Positions 16,703-38,333 are shown, counted from the first letter of the stretch. The stretch is 64,000 nt of DNA from an uncultured virus (IMG/VR IMGVR_UViG_3300038318_000112) (IMGVR_UViG_3300038318_000112:1-64000); one strand, 5' to 3'. Numbers and translations are program-made. The notes: generated by a model not told the origin, from the sequence alone.

Positions 16703-17458
16703 TCAAAACAGTTTATTTCTTTTGATCTTGTCTTCTTTGCAAAATCTTTCTTCAATATCATGCAGAGTCACTCCTTTGGGACGAAAGCTCATAGGGCTAT
16801 CTTCATCAAGCCAAAGTAACGCCTTCCATCTATCCGGATAATTTTCTCTTAAATACCTCAGTTGCCCAAGTGTCTGATAATGGCAGAACCAACAGCCATC
16901 TCTTGCAAAGCTATTATAAACAGGACTCAATAAACTATTTTTTTTACACCACTCATAACAATCTTTTTCGGTCAGCTCTGCCTTAACAAGCGGATACAAA
17001 TTAAAGTCTTTACAATCCCTTATCTTTTCTTGCCTCTCGAGCTTCTTTTCGTCTACAGCGTACCCTACATACCAAAAACTATCCTTTAACTTTGTCTTAT
17101 ATTTTCTAATCGGGGACATTTTTAAGTTACTATTACACCATGCGCCGCGAACAATAGGAAAGCCATATATTTTCCCCCGATTCTCTTCTTTTGCTCTCTC
17201 TCCGCGAACTTGATAAAATTTATCGCAGTACGTTAAATCTGCTTTCAGATGCTTTATCTTGAACCCATACCTACGTTCAATAATTCTATCCGCCTTTTCT
17301 CTAAATTCTTCAACTTCGGGATAATAGGCGGATACTCCATTATCGAACATAACATCAACGGTAACTATCTCATCAAGCGGTAAATGCAATCTCTCTACAA
17401 TAACATCAATCATACAAATACTATCTTTACCATAGCTACAGCTTGCTATATATTTCAT
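16703..17458 (-). CDS. PAPS-reductase-family PP-loop protein
   Basis: SYGKDS PP-loop, WC...LK, YPL, R.GCWFC. Confidence 0.8.
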   Translation of the reverse strand: MKYIASCSYGKDSICMIDVIVERLHLPLDEIVTVDVMFDNGVSAYYPEVEEFREKADRIIERRYGFKIKHLKADLTYCDKFYQVRGERAKEENRGKIYGFPIVRGAWCNSNLKMSPIRKYKTKLKDSFWYVGYAVDEKKLERQEKIRDCKDFNLYPLVKAELTEKDCYEWCKKNSLLSPVYNSFARDGCWFCHYQTLGQLRYLRENYPDRWKALLWLDEDSPMSFRPKGVTLHDIEERFCKEDKIKRNKLF

Positions 17459-17982
17459 TTCGCCATCTCCCATTTATCACACGAACTTGCAGCAGGCTTT
17501 AGTCTTCCCCTTGCTTTCGCACACTTGCCGTATCTTGCTACCAATCCACCGCACATAATCTCTCTGCTCCATGCTCCGCACGTCTCGCACTTCTTCTCAG
17601 GCTTCGTCTCATACACTTCTACACCTGCAATCTTACCGAGATGTCCTTTATCATTCGGTAGTAATTCCTCACCGTCTATCCACGTAAGGCCGTAGCTTTC
17701 AGCACACATCTGCTCGATCTTGCAGCCTCTTGTGCCTTCCCAACCGGGAGCAAATACTACAACGTCTGCGGTAGACATAAGCTGCAAACTCCTGCCTAAA
17801 AACCATAATGGCTTTGCTGCTGTCGGAGCATCCTGAAAGAAACTGTCGATAACCTTTACGCAAGGGATTCCTCCGTCGTCGCTTGTGTATATCCTCTCGA
17901 TCTCCGCTATTATCTCCTGCCTTACTGTTAGAATCTCATCGTCTGTTTTTCCTCTCATCGGCTGCGATATAAATACTTTCAT
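17455..17982 (-). CDS. DUF4406/nucleoside deoxyribosyltransferase-like protein with C-terminal Cys cluster
   Basis: VFISQPMRG, AD...F.PGW...RGC.IE. Confidence 0.7.
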   Translation of the reverse strand: MKVFISQPMRGKTDDEILTVRQEIIAEIERIYTSDDGGIPCVKVIDSFFQDAPTAAKPLWFLGRSLQLMSTADVVVFAPGWEGTRGCKIEQMCAESYGLTWIDGEELLPNDKGHLGKIAGVEVYETKPEKKCETCGAWSREIMCGGLVARYGKCAKARGRLKPAASSCDKWEMAK

Positions 17983-17990
17983 TTTCTATT

Positions 17991-18114
17991 CCTTTCCGGG
18001 GCAGCCATTGCTAAAATACGTTTTCATGTTTCAATAAATCATTGTTGTTTTGTTTTGACGCACGCATTGAGAAAAGTTCCGTGCGCCAGTTATAATTAAT
18101 GTGCACGCTGCCCC
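17991..18114 (-). ncRNA. Candidate structured leader element, copy 1
   Basis: GGGGCAGC...GCTGCCCC closing stem followed by GGAAAGG RBS; same architecture as 18661-18783. Confidence 0.5.
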
Positions 18115-18221
18115 TATATCTGGTCCGCGTAGTAGGTGCGGACGGTTAATCGTTTTCAATTTCCTCAGCCCAACATTTTTCACAATCGACACGACATACT
18201 ATGCCTTGCCCTGCAAAACAT

Positions 18222-18653
18222 TCATCTGTAATTCCAAGTTTTTTTCACAAATACTTTTCTATATTTAATCCCGAATGAATCGCAAGAATCATATCCAATA
18301 TGGTAGTCAATAATATTTCCATTAATAGCTCCTCCGGTATCATCTGATCTTACAATACCCAATCCCTCAATCTTAAACTTCGTCCCTAATAGGATAATAT
18401 CAGGATCAGTTGCAACTGTATAGTATGGCACTGGAGTTCTGCCGCTTGCCGTACTGTAGTTTTCCCCTCCCCCTTCATTATAGTTATATGCAGTGATCTT
18501 AAATGTTCCAATACATACCCATTCAGTTTTCGGTTTAGATTTCTCATATTTTGCCTTTGCTTCACAGTTGCAATACTTTGGAAGTATCATCGGCATAGCC
18601 AAAACCAAAATCAATAATGTGATCAAAATATATAAATCTATCTTTCTATTCAA
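18222..18653 (-). CDS. 3D-domain (peptidoglycan-active) protein with N-terminal membrane anchor
   Basis: ITAY, TASG, TVATDP..I.LG, DDTGGAI.G..ID; TTG start after GGAAAGG. Confidence 0.8.
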   Translation of the reverse strand: MNRKIDLYILITLLILVLAMPMILPKYCNCEAKAKYEKSKPKTEWVCIGTFKITAYNYNEGGGENYSTASGRTPVPYYTVATDPDIILLGTKFKIEGLGIVRSDDTGGAINGNIIDYHIGYDSCDSFGIKYRKVFVKKTWNYR

Positions 18654-18660
18654 ACTGAAC

Positions 18661-18783
18661 CTTTCCGGGGATCGGATCAAAGTAATAATTTATAGTACAA
18701 TATACGCTGATTATTTATGTTCCAGCATCCAATTGTATAGTATGTTTTGAATGCTTGTAATAATTAATTGTGCACCGATCCCC
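18661..18783 (-). ncRNA. Candidate structured leader element, copy 2
   Basis: GGGGATCGG...CCGATCCCC closing stem followed by GGAAAGG RBS. Confidence 0.5.
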
Positions 18784-18912
18784 TTTATATAAATCAATAT
18801 AGGTTATCCTATATTGATCATGTTCTAAATCAACTGTCTGTCGACGTACCTATCGCACTTTGCGTGGCACTCCGCTGTCCTGTCTGGACAGTTCAGACAC
18901 GGCGATTCGGGC

Positions 18913-19179
18913 TTACGCATCTGTATCACCCCAATCCAGTTTCTGACCACAGCATGGGCAGTATAGATCACCAATGCCATTATCACTATCACTCTCATAT
19001 AGACATGTAGGGCAGGTATAGTCATCCAAATGGCAGTCAATAGGCACTTTAGGTATTTGCCTGTTTAGAGCTTCTATTCCCATCTCTATTGCAAACACTT
19101 TATTCTTATTAGAGATTCCACCCTTCATCTGTTCCATCTGTATCGTTTTCAGCATTGCTTTTGCTTCGATTATCTTCAT
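18913..19179 (-). CDS. Zinc-ribbon hypothetical protein
   Basis: ALNRQIPK, CPTC...YCPCCGQKLDW. Confidence 0.7.
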   Translation of the reverse strand: MKIIEAKAMLKTIQMEQMKGGISNKNKVFAIEMGIEALNRQIPKVPIDCHLDDYTCPTCLYESDSDNGIGDLYCPCCGQKLDWGDTDA

Positions 19180-19304
19180 TCAGCACCACCTCGCTCTTTC
19201 AACTTCAATCTTTTCGGCTTTTTTAAGAACCTCGTTCCACTCCATCATCGTAATTTCTCTTTTGGTTCCTCTTAATATCTGCATTTTGTTTTCCTCCTAG
19301 AAAT

Positions 19305-19592
19305 TTATTTATTTTCAAGTTCAGCAAATTGTTTGATATATTCATCTTGCTCATCTTCAAGCCTTTCAAGTTCAGCTTCAAACGCAAGTCTTGCTTTTTC
19401 TTTTCTTGCTTCGTAACCTTCAATCTTTTCTTTAAGATCTGCTTTGCGTTTGTCTTGATTATATTTGTTTTCAACATATATGGCTACTCCATTATCTTTT
19501 CTAACAATCTTTGTTTTATAGCCTTTATACTTAACTTTTGCTCTTGCTTTCATCTTGTCTACCGCTTCGACATGGGAAGCTCTTTCCCACAT
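19305..19592 (-). CDS. Hypothetical coiled-coil protein
   Basis: ORF with phage-like codon use in early operon; start uncertain. Confidence 0.55.
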   Translation of the reverse strand: MWERASHVEAVDKMKARAKVKYKGYKTKIVRKDNGVAIYVENKYNQDKRKADLKEKIEGYEARKEKARLAFEAELERLEDEQDEYIKQFAELENK

Positions 19593-19699
19593 TCCTGTAA
19601 AGCTAAAGTTTTCATTTAATTTAATTCTCTTTCTTTCATCATCTGATTATAAGTCATATCTTTGTCCTCCTAGACTAATTTGATTATTAATTTTATTTA

Positions 19700-20020
19700 T
19701 TATGCTTCTGTATAATCAACATCATAACTCGTAAAGCAATCAACTTCAGGATGAGCAATTCCAGTTGCCTTTTCAATAACCATATTGTTTGTTACAATAT
19801 GGAAGCAGTCAGCTTTATAACTACCGTCCATACCTTGAAAAGAATTACGAGTGTAAACAAATTTTTTATCAGGATGCTTATCACATACCCATACATTCAT
19901 CCTACGTGCTTCACCATCATAACTTTTACCGTCCCAGCCATTGAATGTGATTTCAATCTTTTCATTTGTCTTTACGAAGCCATACATATTATTTGTTGCC
20001 TTAGCATAAATCTTTCTCAT
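19700..20020 (-). CDS. Hypothetical early protein
   Basis: First gene after repeated promoter; AAAGGAG RBS. Confidence 0.7.
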   Translation of the reverse strand: MRKIYAKATNNMYGFVKTNEKIEITFNGWDGKSYDGEARRMNVWVCDKHPDKKFVYTRNSFQGMDGSYKADCFHIVTNNMVIEKATGIAHPEVDCFTSYDVDYTEA

Positions 20021-20054
20021 TTTGTTTCTCCTTTGTTATTTAACATTAACTTGT

Positions 20055-20092
20055 TTACAATTATATTGTAACACATAATATATAAATGTCAA
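20055..20092 (-). promoter_or_regulatory. Repeated strong promoter, copy 1
   Basis: TTGACA-16 nt-TACAAT with TG extension and TTACAAT-N3-ATTGTAA palindrome. Confidence 0.8.
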
Positions 20093-20256
20093 TAGGATTA
20101 AACAAAGTTTTTCAAGTTTTTTTAAATAATTTTTTATGTCTATCTTGATTCAATCTCTTAAAACATACTGGGCCCACCCCCAATTCCACTGCTTTAGGAT
20201 TTTTTAATTTTCTGCCACATACCTTGCAAATATTAGATTTATGATCATTCATCTTA

Positions 20257-21210
20257 TCACCTCATACAATTAACTAGCATATAGTCAAGTGCTAAATCTG
20301 CATCCAATCTTCCCGCCTTGATCCCGGATTCTACTGATTGACATATACCTATATTTCTAACCAGTTCCTTTATTGAGTATCCCCCAATATTTTTCTTTGC
20401 TCCATATAGTTGCCCTTTAGTTAATCCAGTTCTTTGCTCAGCGTTTGATTTATCTTTCCCCAATCCTTTATATGCTAAAACATTGGTGAACGAACTGAAT
20501 AGTAAAGATTCAATTCCAAATACTGATTCATTCTTTTGCTTGATCCCATTCAATAATTTTCCTGCTCGATCTGGATATCCAGCAACCACTGCATTTATAA
20601 AATCAAATGTATTATCTGATTCCTGTCCATTCGTTATCTGCCCGGAATGATATAGAAGCTTAAAAGCATCATTCCCAGTGATATTTTTTACGGCTCTCAA
20701 ATTATTTATCTTATCCATTTCAAGCAGTATTCTACCGTAATCATTATTACAAATCTGAATTAATTTCTTAGCATTAGGATCATCCAAATCTATTTGATCA
20801 TCACCGGTTATGATATATTTCTGTAAGACTTCCGGAGTTAATTTTTCAAACTCAACAGTTTGATTTTGCTTGAAAAACTTGGTAATTTTATTTATCTTAG
20901 TGGTTCTAAAAATCAGCACATGATTCAACTTTGAAAATGTCTGCTCCATCTGCCTCCAACTTTTTTCTGCCTTCATGAAATCTTGATCGGATGAAACCAC
21001 ATAAAGATTCTTTGTAGCAGTAAGATTCTTTTTCCTGCATACTCGGTTTACTTCAGCTACAGTTTCATATTCATATCTTGTATAACCTATATCAACAAGA
21101 TGATCTAAATATTTATCTAACACCAACTGCTCTTCTCCGAACCAAACCATGAAGTGCGGAAAGGATTCATTAGACATCATCTTTATAAGATCCATTAATT
21201 TAATCTTCAT
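20257..21210 (-). CDS. holA: Clamp loader delta subunit (HolA-like)
   Basis: FGEE, C.NDY..I..E.DK, IK.G motifs; adjacent to delta' and gamma. Confidence 0.75.
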   Translation of the reverse strand: MKIKLMDLIKMMSNESFPHFMVWFGEEQLVLDKYLDHLVDIGYTRYEYETVAEVNRVCRKKNLTATKNLYVVSSDQDFMKAEKSWRQMEQTFSKLNHVLIFRTTKINKITKFFKQNQTVEFEKLTPEVLQKYIITGDDQIDLDDPNAKKLIQICNNDYGRILLEMDKINNLRAVKNITGNDAFKLLYHSGQITNGQESDNTFDFINAVVAGYPDRAGKLLNGIKQKNESVFGIESLLFSSFTNVLAYKGLGKDKSNAEQRTGLTKGQLYGAKKNIGGYSIKELVRNIGICQSVESGIKAGRLDADLALDYMLVNCMR

Positions 21211-21994
21211 TTTTTCTCGCCCTCAATATGCTAAACATCATCACCTGTAGCATCTGTAAACTATTACTCTTAGCACCTAAATAAGCACAACCATGAATAT
21301 ATTCCTTAAGTGTTGCTTCACTCAGAATGTCAAAATCCATCAGATATTCCTCGGACATCCATCTTGTCACTAACATTATATCAGTATCATCAATTCCACT
21401 CAATTCAAACTCTCTAAGAATCTTAATAATTGCAACACCCGATCCATCCTGGACTGCTTTACATAAATCCTCAGCACACTTTCTCGCCTTTATTACTTTT
21501 TCTTTATCTACCATCTTGATCAATCCCGGAGTATCGCATACCCTCAGTATATCAGGATCAGTTGTGAAGAACTTTAATTCATCCTTAGTATATGGTCGCA
21601 TAGTTATAGTGGTGGATCGACTTTGAATTGTTGGAAGTATTCTTGCAAATGATTTATTTTTTACTATCAGTGCAAAATAAACATTATTTGGAGGTTCCTC
21701 AATAACCTTTAATAGTGCATTTTCTGCTGCCGCAGTCATTTCCTGTATTTCATCAAATATAAATAATGTCGGGGTAGTTATGGTATATGCTAAATTAATA
21801 CATTCCCTAACCTCCTGAATACTGGTACCAAATATGATCAATGCTAAATTGGCATCCAATGAGATTTTCCTACACATGGTTTTTCTACCACTTCCAAGCT
21901 CCCCAGATATAATTAAAGTTCTGGGTAATGTATTATTACTTATAAAACTATCAATATTTCTCTGTACATATTCTTGACCAATTATATTAAGCAT
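21200..21994 (-). CDS. holB: Clamp loader delta' subunit (HolB-like)
   Basis: G..GSGRKT, AAENALLKVIEEPP, ILPTIQSR. Confidence 0.8.
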   Translation of the reverse strand: MLNIIGQEYVQRNIDSFISNNTLPRTLIISGELGSGRKTMCRKISLDANLALIIFGTSIQEVRECINLAYTITTPTLFIFDEIQEMTAAAENALLKVIEEPPNNVYFALIVKNKSFARILPTIQSRSTTITMRPYTKDELKFFTTDPDILRVCDTPGLIKMVDKEKVIKARKCAEDLCKAVQDGSGVAIIKILREFELSGIDDTDIMLVTRWMSEEYLMDFDILSEATLKEYIHGCAYLGAKSNSLQMLQVMMFSILRARKNED

Positions 21995-24065
21995 CTATCT
22001 TTCCTTTCGTGTAAATCATAAATGATAACTCAACTATAGTTTTTACATCCCCGCTCCATTTAATCTCAGGAAGAAGTTTAAATATCATTTCAGAAACATC
22101 GAATAATCCATCACAAGCAATATCATTTATCTTTGCCAGATTCTCTTCAGTTGGGGGAATATCCAAATCCGATTTAACAGTATCATGGAATAAATAATAT
22201 TTTTCACAATCCAGCAAGAATCTTGCATAGTCGTTAAGAAATAATTTTAAATCTTTTCCAGAGTTATATATTCGATCAATAATCAAGCAAGCTCTTTTAT
22301 CCTGCTCTAGCAATCTATGAGTTAAATCAAAATATACATTTATGTCCTCTGCTCCCAAAACTTCAAGAACCTTATTCAAATCAAGTTCAGGATATATTGA
22401 AAGACATTTATCAAGAAGTGTAATTGCATCTCTCATTCCACCTTTTGCCATTCTTGTAAGATAATCAAGGGATTCTTTAGATGCAATTACACCCTCTTGA
22501 TTTTTAATATATTCCAATCTGCTATGTATTATATCACTATCAATTTTGCTAAAATTAAACCTTTGTACTCGGGATAATATTGTTGCAGGTATCTTTTGTG
22601 GATCAGTTGTGCAAAGAATAAATATAGAAAATGCTGGAGGTTCTTCCAGTAGCTTCAACATTGCCTGCCATGCCCCGTTAGAAAGTGAATGACAGTTGTG
22701 AACTAATGCTCCATTTGCAAAATATGAATGGTGATTGTCAACTTCTATATCATACATTTCTACATATTCTCCATATAAGATTTCACTTGAGAAACCACAT
22801 CTGAACAATTCATCATTATATCCTCGTTTGTAAACCTCAACACTTTCCACCCTATTGAGTTTAGAAATTGAGTTTTCTTCAAATCCTTTACTATACAACT
22901 TTTCGTTCTGTGTCCTTTCCCATCCACCTCTATCGCCAGCTTTATCGTAGGATAAGCAAGGTCTACTTTGTAACAGGTAGGATATAGATGTTCCTTTCTT
23001 TGGCAATTCGTTTTTATCGGATATTCTAATATTGGTGCTTGATTCAGTTCGTTGTATAATTTCATTTGAGGAGTTGTATATTGACCATTGCCACCCCTCT
23101 GTGCGTTCCAGATTCCCCAAGTACCATTCGATTTCCTTGTTTCTATCATCTTCTCTATATTCTGTGAATCGTACATCGGGTTTTGTGTTAGCATACGTTG
23201 ACTTGATTTCTCTCTCAACATCTTTCCATATTCTGTTTGCCGAAATACTTGTTTTTCCTGTATAGAAATCAATTCGTTCTTGCACTCGTCTGAACAAGTC
23301 TTTCTTTGTTTGCAAGGTATCGTCTTGAATTGCTTTCCACAAATCACACAATACTGAACAACCATATTCTCGGCTGATTTCTTTCTTTTCTCCTGTGTCT
23401 GTGAAACAACACAACATTCGTGACAGCAATACTTCGCTACCTTTCGTCTGTTTGAAAATGTCTTTCCACAAGTTACGCAAATATGTTGGTGCATAAACAA
23501 TATCTCCTTCTCTTAAATTCTGTGCTTCAACCCAACCATAATTTGTAAAATATAAATGGTCAACGGTTGTAAATGTTTTTACACCATCTATTGTAACACA
23601 ACATAATCTATCTGTAAACACGCTGTTCTTAAATAAGTGTGTCACAGTACCTATACCAGACATATTACAAACTTTATCTCCAACTTTAATATCTTTTATT
23701 GGGATTGCACCTGATGGAGTTGTTATAAGTGTACTACCCTGAAAGCATTCATCTACAATATATATCTTATATTTACTATCAAGAGATTTCTTTTTACTAT
23801 CCCCAATAACTTTTCTGATATTATCCACGCCACTATTACTTGCGGCATCAATCTCAATGGGATTTCCTTTCCCTTCATTGATCATGCTGGCAAAGATTCT
23901 CGCTACAGTGGTTTTACCACAACCAGCAGGGCCGGTAAATAAATAAGCGTGCTGAAAACTTTTATCCCTAATCTGATTCTGTAGTATTGCTGATATTATT
24001 TCCTGCCCGCATAAATCCTCAAATGTCTTCGGACGGTACGTTACTGCTAATGATTTTTTTGCCAT
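21987..24065 (-). CDS. dnaX: Clamp loader gamma/tau subunit with intein
   Basis: YRP.TF, GPAGCGKTT, EIDAAS, DE|CH, LK.LEEPP, TILSR, GGMRDA; 341 aa after splicing. Confidence 0.93.
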   Translation of the reverse strand: MAKKSLAVTYRPKTFEDLCGQEIISAILQNQIRDKSFQHAYLFTGPAGCGKTTVARIFASMINEGKGNPIEIDAASNSGVDNIRKVIGDSKKKSLDSKYKIYIVDECFQGSTLITTPSGAIPIKDIKVGDKVCNMSGIGTVTHLFKNSVFTDRLCCVTIDGVKTFTTVDHLYFTNYGWVEAQNLREGDIVYAPTYLRNLWKDIFKQTKGSEVLLSRMLCCFTDTGEKKEISREYGCSVLCDLWKAIQDDTLQTKKDLFRRVQERIDFYTGKTSISANRIWKDVEREIKSTYANTKPDVRFTEYREDDRNKEIEWYLGNLERTEGWQWSIYNSSNEIIQRTESSTNIRISDKNELPKKGTSISYLLQSRPCLSYDKAGDRGGWERTQNEKLYSKGFEENSISKLNRVESVEVYKRGYNDELFRCGFSSEILYGEYVEMYDIEVDNHHSYFANGALVHNCHSLSNGAWQAMLKLLEEPPAFSIFILCTTDPQKIPATILSRVQRFNFSKIDSDIIHSRLEYIKNQEGVIASKESLDYLTRMAKGGMRDAITLLDKCLSIYPELDLNKVLEVLGAEDINVYFDLTHRLLEQDKRACLIIDRIYNSGKDLKLFLNDYARFLLDCEKYYLFHDTVKSDLDIPPTEENLAKINDIACDGLFDVSEMIFKLLPEIKWSGDVKTIVELSFMIYTKGKIDA
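22695..23747 (-). mobile_element. Class 1 intein (351 aa) in DnaX Walker B
   Basis: Starts CFQGSTLI; block B TVDHLY; ends MYDIEV..HHSYFANGALVHN, followed by Cys+1. Confidence 0.93.
22760..23494 (-). CDS. Nested +1-frame endonuclease: two Zn fingers plus Vsr/DUF559 (EDxHD-like) nuclease
   Basis: CxxC...CxxxC twice; KVDLAYP..KLAIEVDG..H...D..K..FL..IGWKVLRF; AAGGAG 9 nt before ATG 23494. Confidence 0.85.
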   Translation of the reverse strand: MHQHICVTCGKTFSNRRKVAKYCCHECCVVSQTQEKRKKSAENMVVQYCVICGKQFKTIPCKQRKTCSDECKNELISIQEKQVFRQTEYGKMLREKSSQRMLTQNPMYDSQNIEKMIETRKSNGTWGIWNAQRGGNGQYTTPQMKLYNELNQAPILEYPIKTNCQRKEHLYPTCYKVDLAYPTIKLAIEVDGKGHRTKSCIVKDLKKTQFLNSIGWKVLRFTNEDIMMNCSDVVSQVKSYMENM

Positions 24066-24407
24066 TTAAAATCCTCCTAATTCTTCAAAATAATCAACAA
24101 GTTCTTTCATAAGGCTTTCAGATATAACATAATAATTTTGTCCATTCGGGGCAAACGTAAATGCTAAAACTGCTTCTAAACAACCTTGTTCAAATGCTTG
24201 TTGCCTTACTTTTGCTATCCAATCCTTCTTGATCGAGAAAGATTCTTTAGCGGTGGTGGGTGTTTTTGCTTCAATTAAGAAATCATTTCTTATTTTTACA
24301 TCCCCTCCGCTAAACTTTGTTCCTCCGGAATTGGGAGTTATATTACCTCCCAAAACTTTTGCAATTTCTTTTTCCTGATTACTGCTAAAATCTCTTGTGC
24401 TATTCAT
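24066..24407 (-). CDS. PD-(D/E)XK nuclease, Holliday junction resolvase-like
   Basis: QEK..A, SG....GDV, IEAK. Confidence 0.7.
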   Translation of the reverse strand: MNSTRDFSSNQEKEIAKVLGGNITPNSGGTKFSGGDVKIRNDFLIEAKTPTTAKESFSIKKDWIAKVRQQAFEQGCLEAVLAFTFAPNGQNYYVISESLMKELVDYFEELGGF

Positions 24408-24510
24408 GTAACTGAGTCACCTCCCCATTTTTATTAACCTAAATCTTATCGGTACTGCATCTCTTTTAAACTTTTCCATTTTAAATAATTCTTTCATCTT
24501 ATTTCTCCTA

Positions 24511-24690
24511 TTATAATATGTCTAATATATAATCCATCTCTAATCCTAAATTTGATGCTATAATATCTTCTGCTTCTTCTATATCATAATTACAATCATC
24601 TAATTCTTGTCTTGTCTGAATTAATAAATCTTCTGCTTCCTCTTGTGTCATTGAATTTCTCTGCATTAAAATTTCTACTGCTTTGTTCAT
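24511..24690 (-). CDS. Small acidic protein (59 aa)
   Basis: Read by hand: MNKAVEILMQRNSMTQEEAE...LGLEMDYILDIL. Confidence 0.65.
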   Translation of the reverse strand: MNKAVEILMQRNSMTQEEAEDLLIQTRQELDDCNYDIEEAEDIIASNLGLEMDYILDIL

Positions 24691-24691
24691 T

Positions 24692-25231
24692 TTAATTTTC
24701 CTCCTTAAATTCTTTTATTGCTGATTTAATAACCCATCCCGTCCACTTAATGTTGCATATAGTATTTCTTATTTCTTCTATATGTTCCTGCAACTCTTCT
24801 TCTGTATTATAAGGGTTAAGATAATAATGCCCACCACATTCTGGACCTACTCCATATATCTGAGAAATCGGATTAGTAAGAGGTCTGCCACAGCACATAC
24901 AAGTAGTTGTCTTTTCCGCCTCTGCATGGAGTTCCATATACACCATTCCTCTTGTTTCCTTTATTGCTGTTCCTCGCATGATCACAAAAGGCATCGGTAT
25001 ATCATTATTCCACCTGCTTTGAAAATCAAATGTTGAAGTAGACGGTTTAGTCATATATCGCTTCACTTGGATCCTATAATCCTTTCCCATTTCCATAAAT
25101 ACGTCCGGGTCAGATTTTTCAACCATTCCTGTTTCCTTCTGAACGGGTTCCAGTACAAATCTAAATTCCCGCCCAATTACAAAATCCTGATCTTGAAATC
25201 TATTTATCTGCTTGAATATCTGTTCCATCAT
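24692..25231 (-). CDS. DUF6011-like zinc-binding protein
   Basis: CMCCGRPLTNPIS..YGVGPEC. Confidence 0.7.
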   Translation of the reverse strand: MMEQIFKQINRFQDQDFVIGREFRFVLEPVQKETGMVEKSDPDVFMEMGKDYRIQVKRYMTKPSTSTFDFQSRWNNDIPMPFVIMRGTAIKETRGMVYMELHAEAEKTTTCMCCGRPLTNPISQIYGVGPECGGHYYLNPYNTEEELQEHIEEIRNTICNIKWTGWVIKSAIKEFKEEN

Positions 25232-25475
25232 TTTCCTCGATTCTTGATACTTGAGAACTTGCAAATAAGTTTGCTTTTGCTAAATAAAAATGCTCTCTTT
25301 CTTCTTCATCATCCTTCTTGGATTTATTTGACATTCTCCAAAGTGATGTCTTTATGCAAGCGTGTTCTCCCTTATTGACTTTGAACCCCATCTTCTTCCA
25401 AACCTGATAAGTATGAACTGGTTCATCAATTCCATTTAATGCTTTCTCTTGCATTATGATCTGTTCATTAGTCAT
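25200..25475 (-). CDS. ArdC N-terminal-like ssDNA-binding small protein
   Basis: HTYQVWKKMGFKVNKGEHA...LF..SQV. Confidence 0.6.
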   Translation of the reverse strand: MTNEQIIMQEKALNGIDEPVHTYQVWKKMGFKVNKGEHACIKTSLWRMSNKSKKDDEEEREHFYLAKANLFASSQVSRIEENDGTDIQADK

Positions 25476-25542
25476 ATCATTTGCTCCTTGAATTATTTGC
25501 ACCAACTTCTTATTTCTTCATTTGTTTTTATGTTTATCTTTA

Positions 25543-25580
25543 TTACAATTATATTGTAACACATAATATATAAATGTCAA
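25543..25580 (-). promoter_or_regulatory. Repeated strong promoter, copy 2
   Basis: Same core sequence as 20055-20092. Confidence 0.8.
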
Positions 25581-25612
25581 TAGTTTTTGACAAAGTTTTT
25601 CAAGTTTTTTTT

Positions 25613-25646
25613 AAATAAAATTGCCCGAGATTCAACCCGGGCAATT
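25613..25646 (-). terminator. Intrinsic terminator after clamp gene
   Basis: AATTGCCCG/CGGGCAATT stem followed by T-rich tail on minus strand. Confidence 0.7.
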
Positions 25647-25656
25647 AATCAATTAA

Positions 25657-26730
25657 TTATTCTTCATCTTCAAGCAACGCCAATATCTGAGTAACCCCAT
25701 TTGATTTTATTTTCAGTGCGTTTTCATCACCGTACCAAATCTCTACTACTTCATCATTCATTGCTTCCACTTGAGTTTTTAGCATTTCAGAATCTGCAAA
25801 GCACATAAAGTTTGTTGGATTTTCTGAACCTACAAAATTAATTGTTTCAATACCAGAAACCTTTTTATTCTGTATGATTACTGATCCGCTCTTAGCAAAA
25901 TTAAGAGTGATCCCATTCTGATCATACGGATCAATAAATAATGATATTCTATCAATTACTGCAAGTAATATATCTTTTGGGATTTTACACATTGAAGGGA
26001 ATTTAGTATCGAGATACGCTGATATTTCAGTTGCTGGAAAGTCTGAAATACCATCCATAATCTCACTATAAATTACTACATTATCAGTGCTAAATGCAAG
26101 TTTATTTTGATCCCGATATACTTTTATATCCTCCTGATTATTCAATACTAAGAGATTAATCAACTGAGCCGGAAGTAATACTGGTTCATCTAATATGGTG
26201 GCATCATTAAAAGTAATGGTCATTGAATCAGATGTTATGGTTTTATCATTTATATAGTATCCAGTTAATGAAGGCACTTCAAATGTCTTCGCAAGTGCCG
26301 GTTTATTTATATCAAATATATTTTTTACATCTAAAAGTTTAATGTTTGATTTTGCTTCGTACTTTTCTATGTCGGGAACTGGAAACTTTACATTGCCTGA
26401 TTCATCGGCAATAAGGGGTATCTTATATGTCCCATCTGCATCTATTTCTAGCTCACTATCAGATACAAATAATTTTATTTTATCCTGGGTAATCTTTGAA
26501 ATTAGTTTGCTAAATAAATCAGCATCAACAACCACATCAAAATCTTTATCATCCGGTTCTACCTTTATCTCATATAAGATTGTATTGGTCATATCTGTGG
26601 CGACTAAATCAAGTGTATTTTCTTTGTGCTTTAGTCCAATCATTGAAGTAAGTGGGATCAATTTATTCATTCCCGCTCCTTTGATCACCGTACTTGTGCC
26701 TGCCTGCAATTCAATTCTTAATAATTCCAT
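25657..26730 (-). CDS. dnaN: Sliding clamp (DNA Pol III beta-like)
   Basis: 357 aa, three-domain size; L.L.ATD motif and repeated FP motifs; near clamp loader genes. Confidence 0.75.
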   Translation of the reverse strand: MELLRIELQAGTSTVIKGAGMNKLIPLTSMIGLKHKENTLDLVATDMTNTILYEIKVEPDDKDFDVVVDADLFSKLISKITQDKIKLFVSDSELEIDADGTYKIPLIADESGNVKFPVPDIEKYEAKSNIKLLDVKNIFDINKPALAKTFEVPSLTGYYINDKTITSDSMTITFNDATILDEPVLLPAQLINLLVLNNQEDIKVYRDQNKLAFSTDNVVIYSEIMDGISDFPATEISAYLDTKFPSMCKIPKDILLAVIDRISLFIDPYDQNGITLNFAKSGSVIIQNKKVSGIETINFVGSENPTNFMCFADSEMLKTQVEAMNDEVVEIWYGDENALKIKSNGVTQILALLEDEE

Positions 26731-26745
26731 TTTTTTAATCCTCCT

Positions 26746-27318
26746 TTATTTCAAACTCATTAAAGAGTATGCCTCTTTACGAAGCTCCACATTAGACTTA
26801 AATAATCCCCGGATTGTCGCAGTTCTTGTTTTAGATCCCCTGCTCTTAATACCCCTTGCAGTCATACAGCTATGTTCACCTTCTACAACGACTAGTACAT
26901 CCTGAGAACCTGTAGCCAACTGAATAATTTCAGCTATATCTGAACCTATTCTTTCCTGAAGCTGTAATCGTTTTCCAACCATATCTGCTATTCTTGCAAA
27001 CTTGCTTAATCCTAAAACTTTTCCCCTTGGAATATATGCAATAGAAACTGTCATATTATACATCAAAGCCATATGATGTTCACAATAGCTAAAGATTGGA
27101 ATATCCTGTACAACAACTAAATCATTATTATCTGTATCAAAGCATTTACAGAATTTTTCTGCGATTTCCTCGTTCCTATAATTCATTCCTTCAAAAACTT
27201 CCTGATACATTTTAGCGACCCTTTTAGGTGTCTCTTTCAGTCCTTCCCTATCTGGGTCATCTCCCAATGCTTCTAATATTTCTCTTACTGCTTTCTCAAT
27301 TCTGATTTTATCAATCAT
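26746..27318 (-). CDS. folE: GTP cyclohydrolase I
   Basis: [29 protein letters not shown]. Confidence 0.97.
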
Positions 27319-27319
27319 T

Positions 27320-27961
27320 CTATACACCTCTTTTCTGTGGGTCCCATATAATCTTATGAAGCTGAGCTTGTATCCTCCAATTATTGATATAATGAGTATT
27401 CATATAATTTACAATATCTTCCAATTCAATATTACCAAATACAGGACTAATATAAATCGTTGGAACACTATTCATTGATTCTGTAATCTGTAATGCTTTA
27501 TTTAAGTCGTCTTTACAACCTACCACGAATTTCAAAACATCTGTAGCTAGTAATGAATCTACATTTCCCAAACTCATCTTATCTTCCATCTTACTTGTAG
27601 GACATTTATAATCCATTGTGAAAGTAATGCCGATTGGAAAATCAATAGGTCTTTCAATAGTACCATTTGTTTCAATATTAATCTTGTAATCTAAACGACA
27701 TAAAGCTCTTACAAGATTTTTAATTCCTGGATGTATCATTGGTTCTCCGCCTGTGATTGTTATCATATTACAATCATAAGTTGAAACCTTCTTAATAATT
27801 TCCTCAATAGACATTACTTCATAATTGTTCTCTTCACATCCATATCTTGTATCACAATAACTACAATTAAGATTACAACCATATAATCTTATAAAGGTAC
27901 ATCGGTATCCTGCACGGATACCTTCTCCTTCTATACTGTTGAATATTTCTACTACTTTCAT
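27320..27961 (-). CDS. queE: 7-carboxy-7-deazaguanine synthase (radical SAM)
   Basis: [33 protein letters not shown]. Confidence 0.95.
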
Positions 27962-28296
27962 TCCTGTTCCTCCTTGAAAATTGCAATATTTCCTTCACTT
28001 TCCTGCACTGAAACTTTATAACAAAATGGTACTAAATCGTGAATCCATTTTGCCATATTCTCTGCGGTTGGATTGAAATCTACAACATCATTGATATACT
28101 GATGGTCTAGTTTATCACTAATCATTGTCTTGATGTGCTTAAAATCTACAATCATCCCATCCTGATTAAGTGTTTCATTTTTGCAAAAAACTGTAATAAT
28201 CCAATTATGTCCGTGAATATTACTGCATTTACTTTCATAACTTAATTTAAGATTATGAGCTCCAGCTACTTCCATTCTTTTCGATACATAATACAT
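27958..28296 (-). CDS. queD: 6-carboxy-5,6,7,8-tetrahydropterin synthase
   Basis: AH.L, C..IHGHNW, G...DF, LDH, NPTAEN. Confidence 0.95.
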   Translation of the reverse strand: MYYVSKRMEVAGAHNLKLSYESKCSNIHGHNWIITVFCKNETLNQDGMIVDFKHIKTMISDKLDHQYINDVVDFNPTAENMAKWIHDLVPFCYKVSVQESEGNIAIFKEEQE

Positions 28297-28311
28297 AATA
28301 AAAACCTCCTT

Positions 28312-28812
28312 TTATTTACTGCCTAAAAATTCTTTCAATGTGTTCAGATAATCTGTTTCGTAAGAGATATCAACCCTTGCTGGTAAGTAATAATTATATC
28401 CATCTTTAGAAAAAATCGTCTTGATCAAATCTAACTCTTCTAAAGATTTGAAATAACACATTAATTTCTTTCTTTGCGGATAAACCTCAGCAAACGGCTT
28501 TCCATTTCTCATAATTTTATAACAATTAACTGAAGAATAAAATCTATTCTCAGAAAGAAACTGTCTTACTAAAGATATTTCTTCTCCATACTTTTTCTGT
28601 TTCTGTTTTACACACTTTGATTTCTTTGATTTTTCTTCTTTAGGTTTTACGTTTTCTAAAAATTTCCACCATCTTTTCAATGTGACCTCACTAAACTGTT
28701 TTTCCACTCCAACATCTTTTCCGGAAATAATCTTTATAGACACTTTTCCTTCTTCAACAGAAAGTAATTCTGCTTTGATATTGCTGTCTTTTTTAGATAC
28801 ATATACATCCAT
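28312..28812 (-). CDS. Hypothetical protein heading the queD-queE-folE-dnaN operon
   Basis: TLKRWWK motif; AAGGAGG RBS. Confidence 0.65.
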   Translation of the reverse strand: MDVYVSKKDSNIKAELLSVEEGKVSIKIISGKDVGVEKQFSEVTLKRWWKFLENVKPKEEKSKKSKCVKQKQKKYGEEISLVRQFLSENRFYSSVNCYKIMRNGKPFAEVYPQRKKLMCYFKSLEELDLIKTIFSKDGYNYYLPARVDISYETDYLNTLKEFLGSK

Positions 28813-28851
28813 TACATTGTCCTCCTTTTATGTATTTCTTAACTTTTTTAT

Positions 28852-28880
28852 ATTGTAACACATAAAAGTAGAATTGTCAA
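28852..28880 (-). promoter_or_regulatory. Promoter variant upstream of queD operon
   Basis: TTGACA-17 nt-TACAAT with TG extension. Confidence 0.75.
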
Positions 28881-28885
28881 ATTTT

Positions 28886-29734
28886 TTAGAAAAGTTTTTT
28901 AGATTTTTTCTTTACAAAGAATAAAATCTCATCTGATTCTTTTGGATAAGGAATACTTACAATAGAACTGAGCCAAGCAGAAGGGACATATGATGCCATT
29001 TTATTATAGAAGTTTTTCATTTCTGAAGATACCTTATCACTTTGGAAAAATTCTTTCATCTTTTTCACTTTCATAACAAGTCCTATCTCATTTATTACTT
29101 CAAAACCTAATTCATCTAGTTTTTCTTTCAGTTCATCATAACCCCATTCATATACATGCGCCGCATACTGTGTATCATATCCATTTCCTGGTGTATTTGG
29201 ACAACTTAAGAACATTGTAGAATCTTTATTCATTATCTTATAGCATTCTTCTAAGCTCTTAGAACCTATATCCTTATGCATATGTTCTAAAGCGCTTGTA
29301 TAAATTACAAGGTCAGCAAAGCCTTTTTCAATATGATCACTCATTTCTGCAACATTAGAAAGAATCCAGTCTATCTTAAATGGATAATAATCTTCTAAAT
29401 CTTCTTCTTTCAGCTGTCTATTTGCCGCACCTCTTTTTGCTTCTCTTATATTTGTTTCACAAATATCCACTCCGGTATAACTGTTAATATCTTTGGCATA
29501 ATATCTTAACAATGGAAGGATCAGAGACCTTCCACAACAAACATCCACAACATTCATTCCTTTTTTAGCAAGCATTGTTGCGGAATGATGCTGGATATAG
29601 TTCATGACATCTAGCTGAGTGAAAAATCCATCTCTAAACTGTGAATAGAAGTTCCTCATCTGATAAGTGGTACATAATACATCTTCAGGATTCATTCCTT
29701 CTTCTATCTTATGAACAATTTTCTTTTCGATCAT
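28886..29734 (-). CDS. Class I SAM-dependent methyltransferase
   Basis: VVDVCCGR motif I, YTGVD motif II, ALEH, LSCPN, H..EW...E. Confidence 0.8.
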   Translation of the reverse strand: MIEKKIVHKIEEGMNPEDVLCTTYQMRNFYSQFRDGFFTQLDVMNYIQHHSATMLAKKGMNVVDVCCGRSLILPLLRYYAKDINSYTGVDICETNIREAKRGAANRQLKEEDLEDYYPFKIDWILSNVAEMSDHIEKGFADLVIYTSALEHMHKDIGSKSLEECYKIMNKDSTMFLSCPNTPGNGYDTQYAAHVYEWGYDELKEKLDELGFEVINEIGLVMKVKKMKEFFQSDKVSSEMKNFYNKMASYVPSAWLSSIVSIPYPKESDEILFFVKKKSKKLF

Positions 29735-29746
29735 AATAATTTTCTC

Positions 29747-30880
29747 CTAAAATAATCTCTTTCTATAATTGAAATTTCTTGACTTATTGTTAAGTTTTTC
29801 CACTTTTTTATTCATATACATAGCATTAAAAAGAATTCTATTATCTCTATGTTCTGTCAGTTCATCCAATGTGAATCCGTATTCTTCTATTATCTTATTA
29901 AAGTTATCAATAGCTTTTTTTGGAAGATGTGAATAATGTTTAGGGTCTAATTTCCTGTTATTAGATACAGCTATATTTCCAAAATCAGTCATTATAGACC
30001 CCATAGCTCCTACCATAATCCAAGCGGTACTATCTGCGGAAGTTATTGGATACTTTTCAAGGATGGAAAAATCTGTCATCCCAAAGGTGTGTACTTTTAC
30101 ATTCGGATTACTTGATTTTCTAATAATAATATAACAATTTTCAATAAACTTATCTCTTGTCTCTCTAGTATTACCAACAACTCCTCCAAGTGCTATATAG
30201 TCCATTTTCCTTCCTTTGTCATCAGTCCACTCCAAAGCCTGTTCAAGGTATTTCATTGGTTCTCCTGCGTGGAAAGTATAAAGCATTTTTTGTGGTTCTT
30301 TCATCTTAGGATACATATATAAATAATTTTCCCAAGTCTTGCGGGCAGATTTCTCAAAATCTTTGGTAGTAAGTCCTTCCGATAAAAGCCCTGGAATAAC
30401 GTCAAGCTGTCCATATAAATCAATATCCTCTGAACGCTCATTTATCCATTCTATATATTCATTAACATCAATCTTTATTCCTTTCGTCCAAGCACTAAAT
30501 GCTCCGGAATCAACAAACAATTTTCCTGGCTTGATAAAATCCTTCATATTATCAAAAGTTCTTTTTCCTTGGTCTGCAAAGGAAAATAATGCATCACTAT
30601 TCACCGGTGGTTTGTCAGTTGTTGATGCTCCTGCAAAGTATAGTTTCATAAATTTCTTTATTGTCTCCTTTCCATACTTGTCACACCCTCCGAAAAATAT
30701 ATTCAAATTCTGTTCTCTTTGCTTCTTGTTCATATCTTTCCTTCCTTCACATATATATTTTGAAGTAAATCTGTACTGGTAGTCTCCGTGTGACAATAAT
30801 CGGTTATAGTTAGAAATATCATAAATGTCAATTGAACTATTAGGTCGAAAAGCGTAACCTCCTGCTAAATAAAGTTCCAT
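29747..30880 (-). CDS. TGT-fold base-exchange enzyme, DpdA-like
   Basis: FVDSGAFS, LDVI, IALGG, VHTFG, SADS..W; sits in que cluster; TAATG overlap with polA. Confidence 0.8.
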   Translation of the reverse strand: MELYLAGGYAFRPNSSIDIYDISNYNRLLSHGDYQYRFTSKYICEGRKDMNKKQREQNLNIFFGGCDKYGKETIKKFMKLYFAGASTTDKPPVNSDALFSFADQGKRTFDNMKDFIKPGKLFVDSGAFSAWTKGIKIDVNEYIEWINERSEDIDLYGQLDVIPGLLSEGLTTKDFEKSARKTWENYLYMYPKMKEPQKMLYTFHAGEPMKYLEQALEWTDDKGRKMDYIALGGVVGNTRETRDKFIENCYIIIRKSSNPNVKVHTFGMTDFSILEKYPITSADSTAWIMVGAMGSIMTDFGNIAVSNNRKLDPKHYSHLPKKAIDNFNKIIEEYGFTLDELTEHRDNRILFNAMYMNKKVEKLNNKSRNFNYRKRLF

Positions 30881-33129: not shown

Positions 33130-33777
33130 TTATCCCACTCTCCTTGATGATCTTCTTGATGGTGTTTCAGATTCTGCTGACCTTCTTCTTACTGGTTCTG
33201 AACCATCCGATTTCTCTTCATCCGGGAATGCTCCATTATCAATATAAAACTGCATATCATCAGCAGATTTTTCCATAATAAATCCCCCTAAGAATTCTGG
33301 CTTTTCTATATTTGTAAGGTCAACTGGAGTTACATCTGGCATTGGATAAATATCATAAGTTGTCTTTTTATCACCTTTTGCTCCATGTCTTTCTATCTCA
33401 AATACATGATTGATCAGATCGGGATATCTATTAAATAGTGCAGAAAGTTTCTTGCTGAATGTTTTTCCTCTTTCCCAAATCTTAATTTTATTATCATTGA
33501 GGTCATACATAGCAATCATACAAACCACACTTGTTTTCATTCCCGCAAGACAGAATGGACAATCCTCAACAGGTGAATCATAATCTTCTCTTGCACAACT
33601 CACATAACGATCAAACTCTCCAACCTTAACTTTGTGGCAGTTATAAAAATCCATTTCTGAATAATCTCTATAAAGAAACTGCACTCTTGCTACGTCACCA
33701 TCATTCTGAAGTTTTAACCATTCACTCGAATTATTACTTCCATACTTGTCAACATCATTTGGGTTAATTCTTCCCAT
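33130..33777 (-). CDS. Single-stranded DNA-binding protein (gp32-like)
   Basis: W.KL..DG...V.FL, C...CPFC, ER.G.KG...TTY; between recA and polA. Confidence 0.75.
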   Translation of the reverse strand: MGRINPNDVDKYGSNNSSEWLKLQNDGDVARVQFLYRDYSEMDFYNCHKVKVGEFDRYVSCAREDYDSPVEDCPFCLAGMKTSVVCMIAMYDLNDNKIKIWERGKTFSKKLSALFNRYPDLINHVFEIERHGAKGDKKTTYDIYPMPDVTPVDLTNIEKPEFLGGFIMEKSADDMQFYIDNGAFPDEEKSDGSEPVRRRSAESETPSRRSSRRVG

Positions 33778-37394: not shown

Positions 37395-38333
37395 TTAGAA
37401 AATTTCTTTAAGGTCTAAAAACTCGCCTCCTAAATCATTTATATCTTTTCCCTCTTCTTGATATTCAATTTCCTTCAGCAATTTATTTTTAACTTGACAT
37501 TTAAATCTTACTGTTGCTTTTCTTCCTGCTTCATCAGGATCAAGACAAATTACATATTCGCGCACTGGAAGATTCCTTAAAATCTGATACTGCCGTTTGT
37601 TTCCCAATCCTATCAAAGCCATGGCAGGTTTATCGAGTTGCCACAGAGTCAAAGCATTAAAAAAAGATTCACAGATATACGCTTTTTTATATTTTCCGGA
37701 TAAGAATTCATCCATTAGATAAATTGGTTTTGATTTATTTGGAGGCAATCTAAAAAACTTTCCTGTCACTGATCTTTTAGCCACGAACAAAACCTTTCCA
37801 TGGTCAGTTATTGGAAATGTAATACTATCTGTTTTACGATCATAACCAATATCAAATCTTTCTATTGTATTTAAAGTCAAACCTCTTTCATACATATATG
37901 GATGGATATATCTATATGAATCAAGTTCATCTTCTTTTGTTGCTTCAACTTGATCTCCTAAAATCTTATGCCTTGGATTAAATTCAATTTTATTTCGAGT
38001 TATGATTTCAGTAGAATTAAAATGTCTTATCAACCATTTCATCCCAAACTTTCCCTCATCCTGATAACCAAATATTTCAGAAATCATTTGATCAATCGTA
38101 CCACTCCATCCACAAGCAAAGCAATGACATTTTCCAGTATCAACATTTATTCCGAAGGATGGTTTAGCTTCGTGGCCATCTTTATGAAAGGGACAGTTGG
38201 TTTGAATGTTATATCCGGAATTTCTGAATACTGCAAATAAATCAATTCCATTTTTTACACTCAGCTCTGATTTTAAAGTTTCAAGAACATCAATTAATTC
38301 TGCTTGTATCAATGTTTCATTTACAGTTAGCAT
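37395..38333 (-). CDS. dnaG: DNA primase (CHC2 zinc finger plus Toprim)
   Basis: CPFH...E..PSF...CFAC; ICES..NA; D.D.AG; KD.ND. Confidence 0.9.
   Translation of the reverse strand: MLTVNETLIQAELIDVLETLKSELSVKNGIDLFAVFRNSGYNIQTNCPFHKDGHEAKPSFGINVDTGKCHCFACGWSGTIDQMISEIFGYQDEGKFGMKWLIRHFNSTEIITRNKIEFNPRHKILGDQVEATKEDELDSYRYIHPYMYERGLTLNTIERFDIGYDRKTDSITFPITDHGKVLFVAKRSVTGKFFRLPPNKSKPIYLMDEFLSGKYKKAYICESFFNALTLWQLDKPAMALIGLGNKRQYQILRNLPVREYVICLDPDEAGRKATVRFKCQVKNKLLKEIEYQEEGKDINDLGGEFLDLKEIF

Follow-up and report, generated by a model that had tools for sequence, protein, structure and literature searches.

The window analysed here is a stretch of 64,000 nucleotides from an uncultured virus (IMG/VR record IMGVR_UViG_3300038318_000112, 85,059 bases in full). 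We describe a group of genes between positions 16,703 and 30,880 in which three candidate DNA-modifying enzymes end in a similar short peptide, basic residues followed by Leu-Phe (the basic-LF tail), and which includes the gene of a beta sliding clamp. A preliminary description of the window had proposed that the tails serve for docking on this clamp. The endings it listed, YRKRLF in a DpdA-like protein, KSKKLF in a methyltransferase (MTase), KRNKLF in a PAPS-reductase-like protein and KEIF in the primase, are all present, and all four genes lie on the minus strand. The genes most directly concerned are the following.

29747..30880, minus strand: DpdA-like DNA guanine transglycosylase, 377 amino acids (aa), ending NFNYRKRLF; tail YRKRLF at 29750..29767
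28886..29734, minus strand: class I S-adenosylmethionine (SAM)-dependent MTase, 282 aa (Pfam); tail KSKKLF at 28889-28906
16703..17473, likely start at 17458, minus strand: PAPS-reductase-like PP-loop protein; tail KRNKLF at 16706-16723
25657..26730, minus strand: beta sliding clamp, 357 aa, ending ALLEDEE (profile, Pfam, model); the proposed docking hub
26746-27327, minus strand: FolE (Pfam); no tail
27320-27961, minus strand: QueE (Pfam); no tail
27958-28296, minus strand: QueD (Pfam); no tail

From the polymerase gene to the clamp gene, the order is the DpdA-like gene, the class I SAM MTase gene, an open reading frame (ORF) of 166 aa, queD, queE and folE; the clamp gene sits 15 nt downstream of folE.

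The three tails are encoded by AAACTGTTTTGA, AAACTTTTCTAA and AGATTATTTTAG, in which the codons for Leu and Phe and the stop codons differ among the genes. The likeness is thus one of proteins and not a DNA repeat, and a DNA-level repeat, a terminator or a ribosome-binding site is excluded as the cause of the shared ending. Among the 59 minus-strand ORFs of at least 50 aa between 1 and 47.5 kb, three ended in [KR]LF compared to 0.042 expected from the 10 internal [KR]LF occurrences among 13,889 positions (Poisson probability of at least three, 1.2e-5). The only other LF endings in the 85-kb record belonged to five short ORFs (40-91 aa), all on the plus strand and with at most one K or R in the last six residues, while the genes of the phage part read from the minus strand. 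No further plausible gene with an LF end was found in the whole 85-kb record.

Bacterial partners of the beta clamp (Pol II, Pol IV, Hda, MutS/MutL and the delta subunit) bind it via QL[SD]LF or QLxLxL motifs; both such peptides and the tool-belt view of the clamp belong to textbook knowledge. The phage tails are, like such peptides, short and outside the folded domain, with residues 365-377 of DpdA forming a coil in the structural model and the MTase tail being an add-on of 5-8 residues. With respect to the consensus Q-L-[SD]-L-F, however, only the final L-F fits; there is no glutamine, and basic residues occupy positions -3 to -6. Judged by their sequences, the three tails are a variant and not a canonical clamp-binding motif. 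Relatives come closer to the canonical form, with PGPKKLSLF and QMELF at the end of DpdA and QMTIF in PAPS-like proteins.

The DpdA-like protein was compared by tblastn with 189 phage records, and its identity to characterised phage DpdA proteins was 39% for Dp-1 gp7, 44% for Flasso and 29-31% for 9g and CAjan. The predicted structure was a TGT-type barrel (Foldseek match to 1iq8, E 4.5e-7, probability 1.00, TMq 0.50), in which the N-terminal 80 residues were poorly modelled and the last helix ended at residue 364. The ORF matched no Pfam family at E <= 0.01, the TGT model included, being too divergent for that model; homology and the modelled fold point to a DpdA-like DNA guanine transglycosylase.

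The preliminary description had staked its proposal on conservation of the tail in orthologues. In DpdA the tail is kept: among the best 120 of 817 homologues (E <= 1e-5; 45-97% identity) 118 ended in LF and 2 in LI, always preceded by Lys/Arg-rich residues, and a large subgroup ended in PGPKKLSLF. Across the wider family, represented by 150 proteins from clusters at 50% identity, we counted 86 LF, 15 LW, 6 LL and 5 LI endings, and 81 of the 86 LF tails were net basic. For example, DpdA gp7 of Dp-1, the nearest cultured relative, ends in NRQRRLF; the QueF, QueC, QueD, QueE and FolE proteins of Dp-1 have no such end. Longer DpdA forms of ~525 aa, ending in GF or GFNS and without an LF tail, were observed in five loci (L059, L062, L063, L066 and L073); the L059 protein, the only one of the five that was scanned, has a C-terminal QueF domain (Pfam).

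The MTase behaves similarly. The ORF matches Pfam Methyltransf_23/11/25/31, and 93 of the best 120 of 699 homologues (E <= 1e-5) end in basic-LF, so conservation of the tail was found here as well. In most of the other 27 the protein stops where the last core strand, EILF[IV]V[KR]K, stops, so that the MTase tail is seen to be an appendix of 5-8 residues. On this sequence evidence the tails are clearly functional and modular.

The phage clamp gene at 25657-26730, which had been annotated in the preliminary description, is real, since profile, Pfam and fold agree. A search of PDB with the clamp profile gave the Bacillus subtilis clamp 4tr6 at E 4e-21 and 47 clamp sequences at E <= 0.01, and the ORF scored 26.1 bits against PF00712 (cut-off 24.4). 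The monomer model (predicted local distance difference test 92.7) had the three-domain fold, with Foldseek TM scores of 0.79-0.86 to the clamps of Escherichia coli, B. subtilis and others; its last strand (346-351) was followed by an acidic coil, LEDEE. A cognate clamp loader (DnaX, delta' and delta) is encoded within 20257-24065.

We looked at the genes around DpdA homologues in 80 IMG/VR loci (set 1, L001-L080) found with a DpdA alignment profile. Sixty of these 80 loci had a clamp homologue on the downstream side of dpdA, 3-4 kb away, and the remaining 20 had less than 3.9 kb of DNA on the clamp side of dpdA; the clamp was therefore present in 60/60 loci of sufficient length. In all 60 clamps the last ten residues were net negative, opposite in charge to the basic tails. 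Co-occurrence of the tail with a phage dnaN, which had been proposed as a check, is borne out for DpdA in this form.

A second clade, made of CAjan, 9g, PaMx25, Bhz54 and RHEph05, has the gene order dpdA, clamp, polymerase. The first two genes are adjacent in 9g, PaMx25 and Bhz54 and are separated by one small ORF in CAjan and by two in RHEph05. The clamps of this clade end in GERV, GFRL, GMRL, GMRG or GQKV and are not acidic, and the DpdA proteins end in VMELF, LQDLFDE, IQELF, QMELF or EQRLF, which are Q..LF-like and non-basic. In this independent clade the charges are reversed, with LF again at the end of DpdA but in a non-basic context, beside a non-acidic clamp. In the actinophages Bipper and Sonali, with no neighbouring clamp, DpdA ends in KENGQ and SPFAR. 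Whole-record clamp searches of Bipper and Sonali were blank, but these blanks carry little weight, as PF00712 also failed to find the clamps annotated in CAjan and 9g. A genome search with the clamp profile missed the clamp of locus L120, found by hmmsearch; statements on clamp absence rest on hmmsearch of six whole records.

The 78 loci around MTase homologues (set 2, L090-L167; MTase recovered in 78/78 by six-frame segments) gave a comparison in which the tail varies. LF tails were carried by 7 of the 78 MTases; the other 71 were tail-less. Six of the seven LF-tailed MTases had an LF-tailed DpdA beside them, and the DpdA match in the seventh locus ended differently and may be broken. An acidic-tailed clamp was also present in six of the seven loci, the seventh being truncated. 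The 71 tail-less MTases adjoined short (~250 aa) tail-less DpdAs wherever a DpdA was called. These comparisons support the view that DpdA and MTase gain or lose the tail together.

A ParB_N-type gene was found in 64 of the 71 tail-less loci versus 0 of 87 tail-bearing ones (0/7 in set 2 and 0/80 in set 1). This gene stands right upstream of dpdA and mostly ends 3 nt into it (L097-L166; for example, L120:8558-9262 and L151:8498-9091). A search of the window's record gave no ParB_N match. In one complete 62.7-kb record of the tail-less type, hmmsearch found no clamp, although it picked up both positive controls. The clamp tether and the ParB-like partner look like alternative ways to bring DpdA and MTase to DNA. 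Bacterial DpdA needs the ParB-like ATPase DpdB (PMC10164549), and a split into ParB-dependent and ParB-independent forms is described for phage T-dioxygenases (PMC13229309).

LF was the commonest C-terminal dipeptide in set 1, found in 124 of 1847 ORFs: 76 DpdAs, 8/8 MTases, 7 primases, 1 helicase and 32 ORFs of other families, 2 of which are probably spurious antisense ORFs. A Pfam scan that covered 19 of the 32 matched four N6_N4 DNA methylases, six DUF6884 proteins, three stand-alone Nlig-Ia domains and one each of DUF5591 (ArcS2-like), PAPS_reduct, HNH endonuclease and CxxCxxCC (DpdM-like); three ORFs had no Pfam match (two from one ~170-aa family and one of 181 aa). LF tails thus occur in at least seven Pfam families among related phages. 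On the other hand, the LF ending was on none of the 34 FolE, 38 QueE and 36 QueD homologues of set 1. These counts support the tail as a modular add-on restricted to DNA-acting enzymes.

Among the carriers, the DUF6884 proteins (138-234 aa) are encoded ~0.1-0.7 kb downstream of dpdA in loci L002, L010-L017 and L021 (for example, L002:10897-11313 and L010:7828-8328). By this position and tail DUF6884 is a candidate for an uncharacterised DNA-level enzyme of the deazaguanine pathway. A tailed family of ~170-175 aa without a Pfam match lies just upstream of the clamp gene in L008, L014 and L030.

The part of the record that holds these genes, bases 1 to ~47,000, is AT-rich (32-39% GC), has nearly all its genes on the minus strand, and encodes a complete replisome as well as RecA (Pfam). 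Beyond the genes listed above, its relevant features are these.

20257-21210, minus strand: clamp loader delta (Pfam)
21200-21994, minus strand: clamp loader delta' (Pfam)
21987-24065, minus strand: clamp loader DnaX, intein-containing (Pfam)
25619..25646, minus strand: terminator-like hairpin just past the clamp stop codon (consensus match only)
28852..28880, minus strand: promoter-like site TTGACA-17-TACAAT with TG (consensus match only), opening the ORF166-queD-queE-folE-clamp unit
30880..33129, minus strand: family A DNA polymerase (PolA) with 3'-5' exonuclease (Pfam); N-terminus MPLSFARPK at 33115-33129
33130-33777: single-stranded DNA-binding (SSB)-like protein; C-terminal aromatic tail conserved in the family
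37395..38333, minus strand: DnaG-type primase, ending LKEIF (Pfam)
38334-39596: DnaB-type helicase, ending EEDEDF (Pfam)

PolA, the only DNA polymerase of the phage, starts with MPLSFARPK, an LF-type motif with a basic linker. M-x(0-4)-L-(S)-F was present at or near the start of 58 of 66 PolA homologues longer than 600 aa (e.g., MALSF, MALF, MSGLF), with a variable basic linker next. Five PolAs start with M[GS]LL[NS]IKAP, and these come from exactly the five loci with the ~525-aa DpdA without LF. When the PolA start motif was tabulated against the DpdA LF tail, 54 loci had both, 5 had neither and 4 were discordant. The polymerases of CAjan, 9g, PaMx25 and Bhz54 (Queuovirinae-type) start with MR.DA[IL]G[FLM]FW.D, then a basic Pro-rich linker. 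The N-terminal peptide of PolA is a candidate clamp-binding motif. Since PolA is expected to hold the clamp and carries the motif itself, the clamp is the most economical common partner of all these peptides, and PolA would be a client and not a hub.

The primase had been named next to the three enzymes in the preliminary description. Its KEIF ending is real, but membership in the shared motif is not borne out, as 62 primase homologues show EF.NL.EIF, acidic at position -3. Helicase homologues end in [DE][DE]VF or EEEEY and SSB-like proteins in [DE].F or SRRAGM. By their sequences, the C-terminal aromatic tails of primase, helicase and SSB-like protein are signals different from basic-LF; they bring to mind the tails of T7 gp4 and gp2.5, which are of an acidic-Phe type. 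In the delta subunit a conserved strand is immediately preceded by a basic-x-Leu element, RKKNL (KKSL, RKKSIL, QKGL and NTGF in relatives; 7 sequences), at what we take to be the place of the clamp-opening plug of E. coli delta.

The PAPS-reductase-like protein is the weakest of the three cases. Its match to PF01507 was weak (21.4 bits, just under the cut-off of 22.5; E 2.9e-4), several homologues carry a precomputed PF01507 assignment, and the sequence SYGKDS near the N-terminus resembles the PP-loop motif. We observed Qxx[ILMV][FYW] in the last 14 residues of 41 of 120 homologues versus 0 of 120 in a mid-protein control window, usually at the extreme end (QMTIFDFI), where the window's protein has KRNKLF. 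Read as sequence, this is the canonical clamp or PIP-type pattern in the same place. It fits a family generally tethered by its C-terminal peptide, which would be re-tuned to the resident clamp. Three C-terminal classes were observed in this phage family: the Q[ML][ST]IFDF type (41/120), LNYR[LW]F and fusions of 625 aa. Around the PAPS-like homologues of 80 IMG/VR loci (set 3, L172-L251) no DpdA was found within 10 kb (0/80), nor was one found in five whole records (0/5), and on this absence of linkage we reject the PAPS-like enzyme as a member of the deazaguanine pathway. A separate PAPS_reduct family (346 aa, ending GRKKLF) carries the tail in clamp-bearing relatives. In the window, the PAPS-like gene overlaps a DUF4406-like (nucleoside deoxyribosyltransferase-like) ORF at 17455-17982.

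Taken together, we consider it likely that the basic-x-Leu-Phe-COOH tail is a docking motif that tethers DNA-acting enzymes to the phage's own beta clamp, and a clade-specific variant of the bacterial clamp-binding motif appears to be the best explanation of its sequence. FolE, QueD and QueE, being tail-less, would make the free 7-deazaguanine base. The clamp loader would place the phage clamp on newly primed phage DNA and PolA would hold it via the N-terminal M-P-L-S-F, while DpdA, the MTase and the PAPS-like enzyme would take turns on the same clamp pocket through their C-terminal LF. The basic residues of the tail would pack against the clamp's acidic C-terminal end, and modification would follow the fork. 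From conservation and co-occurrence we infer that tail and clamp are in physical contact, that a pocket receives the tail, that the charges pair and that modification is coupled to replication; the sparing of host DNA, which the preliminary description had suggested, is conceivable as a further consequence.

Several observations weigh against such docking. In the PAPS-like family the tail is not conserved: among the best 120 homologues (P0121-P0240) only two have basic-LF, P0220 and P0121, the latter being the protein of the window itself. In set 3, 35 of 76 PAPS-like ORFs end in R[LWF]F, of the type LNYR[LW]F, and have no clamp within 10 kb. Nor did the clamp profile (hmmsearch) find a clamp in five whole PAPS-like records, four of them at least 90% complete, with both positive controls detected. 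The pattern that fits re-tuning of the PAPS-like tail shows equally well that LF-type ends exist without a phage clamp. A clamp gene by itself is also not predictive of the tail, for 18 of the 71 tail-less MTase loci have a beta clamp within 10 kb (with a PVKV.. end, non-acidic). Few independent lineages stand behind the contrasts, and the counts overstate the number of events. Being without Gln and unusually basic, the tail could instead contact DNA. Finally, Dp-1, in which tail and clamp are both present, replaces only ~1.7% of its G (PMC6884629), so tethering does not imply complete modification.

With these points in mind, one may ask which other partner could account for the tail. Docking on the host beta clamp, by which the enzymes would hijack host replication sites or the phage clamp would be left to the polymerase only, would agree with the LF-type and Qxx[IL]F-type PAPS-like endings in phages that lack their own clamp, and the terminal LF does fit the last two positions of QL[SD]LF. 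However, the tail of DpdA and MTase travels with a particular subtype of phage clamp, its charge complements the clamp C-terminus and switches in the clade with the non-acidic clamp, and DpdA and MTase without the tail are found in proviruses, to which a host clamp is presumably available as well; we regard the host clamp as an unlikely partner. Much the same low probability is given to another clade-specific protein of the replisome, such as helicase, SSB-like protein, RecA or PolA. The replisome has several further C-terminal aromatic tails, and PolA, SSB-like protein, helicase and primase co-occur with the tail within 10 kb about as often as the clamp does. Still, PolA carries the motif itself and looks like a client rather than a hub, the tails of helicase and SSB are acidic-aromatic and also client-like rather than pockets, and CAjan and 9g keep LF tails with a differently annotated polymerase, always beside a clamp gene.

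A role of the tail in direct handling of DNA, as a basic DNA-binding or catalytic appendage with, e.g., the Phe wedging into DNA during base flipping, seems to us even less probable than either of these partners. A Lys/Arg-rich tail on enzymes that all handle DNA is what it would lead one to see. It does not sit well with a strict terminal L-F-COOH on unrelated folds (TGT, Rossmann MTase, PP-loop, HNH, Nlig-Ia), with non-basic QxELF versions at the same place in other clades, with the loss of the tail together with the gain of a ParB-like partner, or with the same motif at the N-terminus of the polymerase. As to chance, K, L, F and N are common residues in a genome of 33% GC, and a compositional origin of the shared ending could be imagined. 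It is refuted by the statistics of the endings given above and by the conservation in MTase and in DpdA, down to 45% identity, and we assign it a negligible probability.

If the docking on the phage clamp is accepted, the place of the MTase in the pathway can be considered. The preliminary description had suggested DNA, and not a free base, as the substrate of the MTase, and the conservation of the tail, its modularity and its co-occurrence with the clamp argue for this. The ORF is not of a standard DNA methylase type (Pfam). As a class I Rossmann MTase it also cannot be DpdM, which has the CxxxCxxCC YkgJ fold of PMC10516641; CxxCxxCC proteins with an LF tail are present in relatives L051 and L053. 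A record-wide search found no QueC in the record of the window. In general, the class I MTase and QueC were found together in only 2 of 158 loci (2/8 MTase loci of set 1 and 0/78 loci of set 2), with QueC present in 49 of the 80 set 1 loci.

Without QueC, the free base made by FolE, QueD and QueE is probably 7-carboxy-7-deazaguanine. A phage DpdA was shown to insert this base in a delta-queC host (PMC10516641, Table 2). One may speculate that the tailed MTase methylates the inserted base on DNA, where the carboxyl group is the obvious target. Acting on 7-carboxy-7-deazaguanine, it may produce a methyl ester, so far undescribed as a DNA base. The joint scenario goes further: a private docking code of basic-LF tails and acidic clamp would be a tool-belt for a set of modifying enzymes, a tethered MTase in place of QueC would methyl-esterify, on DNA, the 7-carboxy-7-deazaguanine inserted by DpdA behind the fork and so give an undescribed base, and the clamp tether and a ParB-like loader would be interchangeable. 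We find it rather doubtful that all of these elements hold together.

With regard to expression, the promoter-like site and the hairpin after the clamp stop codon make it plausible that the clamp gene is co-transcribed with queD, queE and folE, as had been proposed. The stop codon of PolA overlaps the dpdA start as TAATG (30878-30882), and the PolA ATG directly abuts the stop codon of the SSB-like gene (33127-33132). These start and stop overlaps suggest translational coupling of SSB-like protein, PolA and DpdA. DnaX is interrupted by an intein, with Hint/Intein_splicing matches, and an ORF of 246 aa lies there in a different frame (22760-23500). The SNF2 helicase at 44000-46756 is likewise interrupted by an intein with a LAGLIDADG homing-endonuclease domain. 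Beyond ~47-48 kb, where the GC content rises from ~33% to 42-49%, there is another set of phage genes (tail module, terminase), including an SSB ending in DDNIPF at 76109-76540; a gap of 10 N lies at 51044-51053. It may be that the 85-kb record combines two sources, either two different phages or a phage with a prophage.

If true, clamp docking would explain how a base-exchange enzyme is aimed at guanines in newly made double-stranded phage DNA, and why dpdA stands just upstream of the clamp gene in 9g, CAjan, PaMx25 and Dp-1. A terminal basic-LF would be a simple sequence mark of enzymes acting on DNA rather than on free bases, and it would flag DUF6884, PAPS-like proteins and a 175-aa family as candidate DNA modifiers. 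Two alternative systems for the delivery of DpdA are suggested, a clamp tether or a ParB-like partner, and the MTase of QueC-less phages may yield a new 7-deazaguanine derivative.

Like the bacterial clamp-binding motif, the phage tail is a short peptide at the extreme terminus, on a floppy linker, which ends in Leu-Phe and is common to unrelated clients of one bacterial-type clamp, the polymerase included. Unlike it, the phage tails have no Gln and are rich in Lys/Arg before the LF, the clamp has an acidic C-terminal extension, and the clients are enzymes of DNA modification, whereas those of the bacterial motif serve in repair or replication. A eukaryotic parallel is DNMT1 in maintenance methylation, where a short peptide (PIP box) that binds PCNA brings this DNA methyltransferase to the fork. 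This analogy is functional only, as eukaryotic PCNA and the PIP box have no homology to the phage system.

A closer precedent is T4, whose alpha-glucosyltransferase binds the gp45 clamp (Sommer 2004, cited in PMC13216743, where the pull-down was repeated). There, too, a phage modification enzyme sits on the phage's own clamp and was proposed to act during replication. The difference is that gp45 is a PCNA-like trimer and not of the beta type, one enzyme is involved, and the passages on this contact describe no shared terminal motif; moreover, PMC13216743 concludes that the modification share does not depend mainly on the contact with the clamp. In full-text searches of the literature on DpdA and 7-deazaguanine we found no account of DpdA docking on a clamp. 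The word 'clamp' does not occur in the main texts of PMC6884629 and PMC10516641, nor do 'C-terminal', 'processivity' and 'replisome' in that of PMC6884629. In a host-phage interactome paper (PMC4840434), gp7, gp10 and the clamp are unmentioned. By titles and the beginnings of abstracts, no paper was found on a clamp-docking tail shared by DNA-modifying enzymes.

The DpdA1 systems of 9g, CAjan and Dp-1 have the same DpdA family and the same FolE, QueD and QueE neighbours (PMC6884629, PMC10516641), and Dp-1 has a similar gene layout with DnaN and the clamp loader. In contrast to these systems, the phage of the window has no QueC and carries a class I MTase in its place. The bacterial DpdA/DpdB pair (PMC10164549) and the ParB-dependent phage T-dioxygenases (PMC13229309) are cases of a base-modifying enzyme in need of an accessory protein that loads on DNA, and the tail-less phages resemble them in their ParB_N gene next to dpdA. 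The phage of the window differs from all systems with such a partner, for it has no ParB_N gene and has the LF tail instead.

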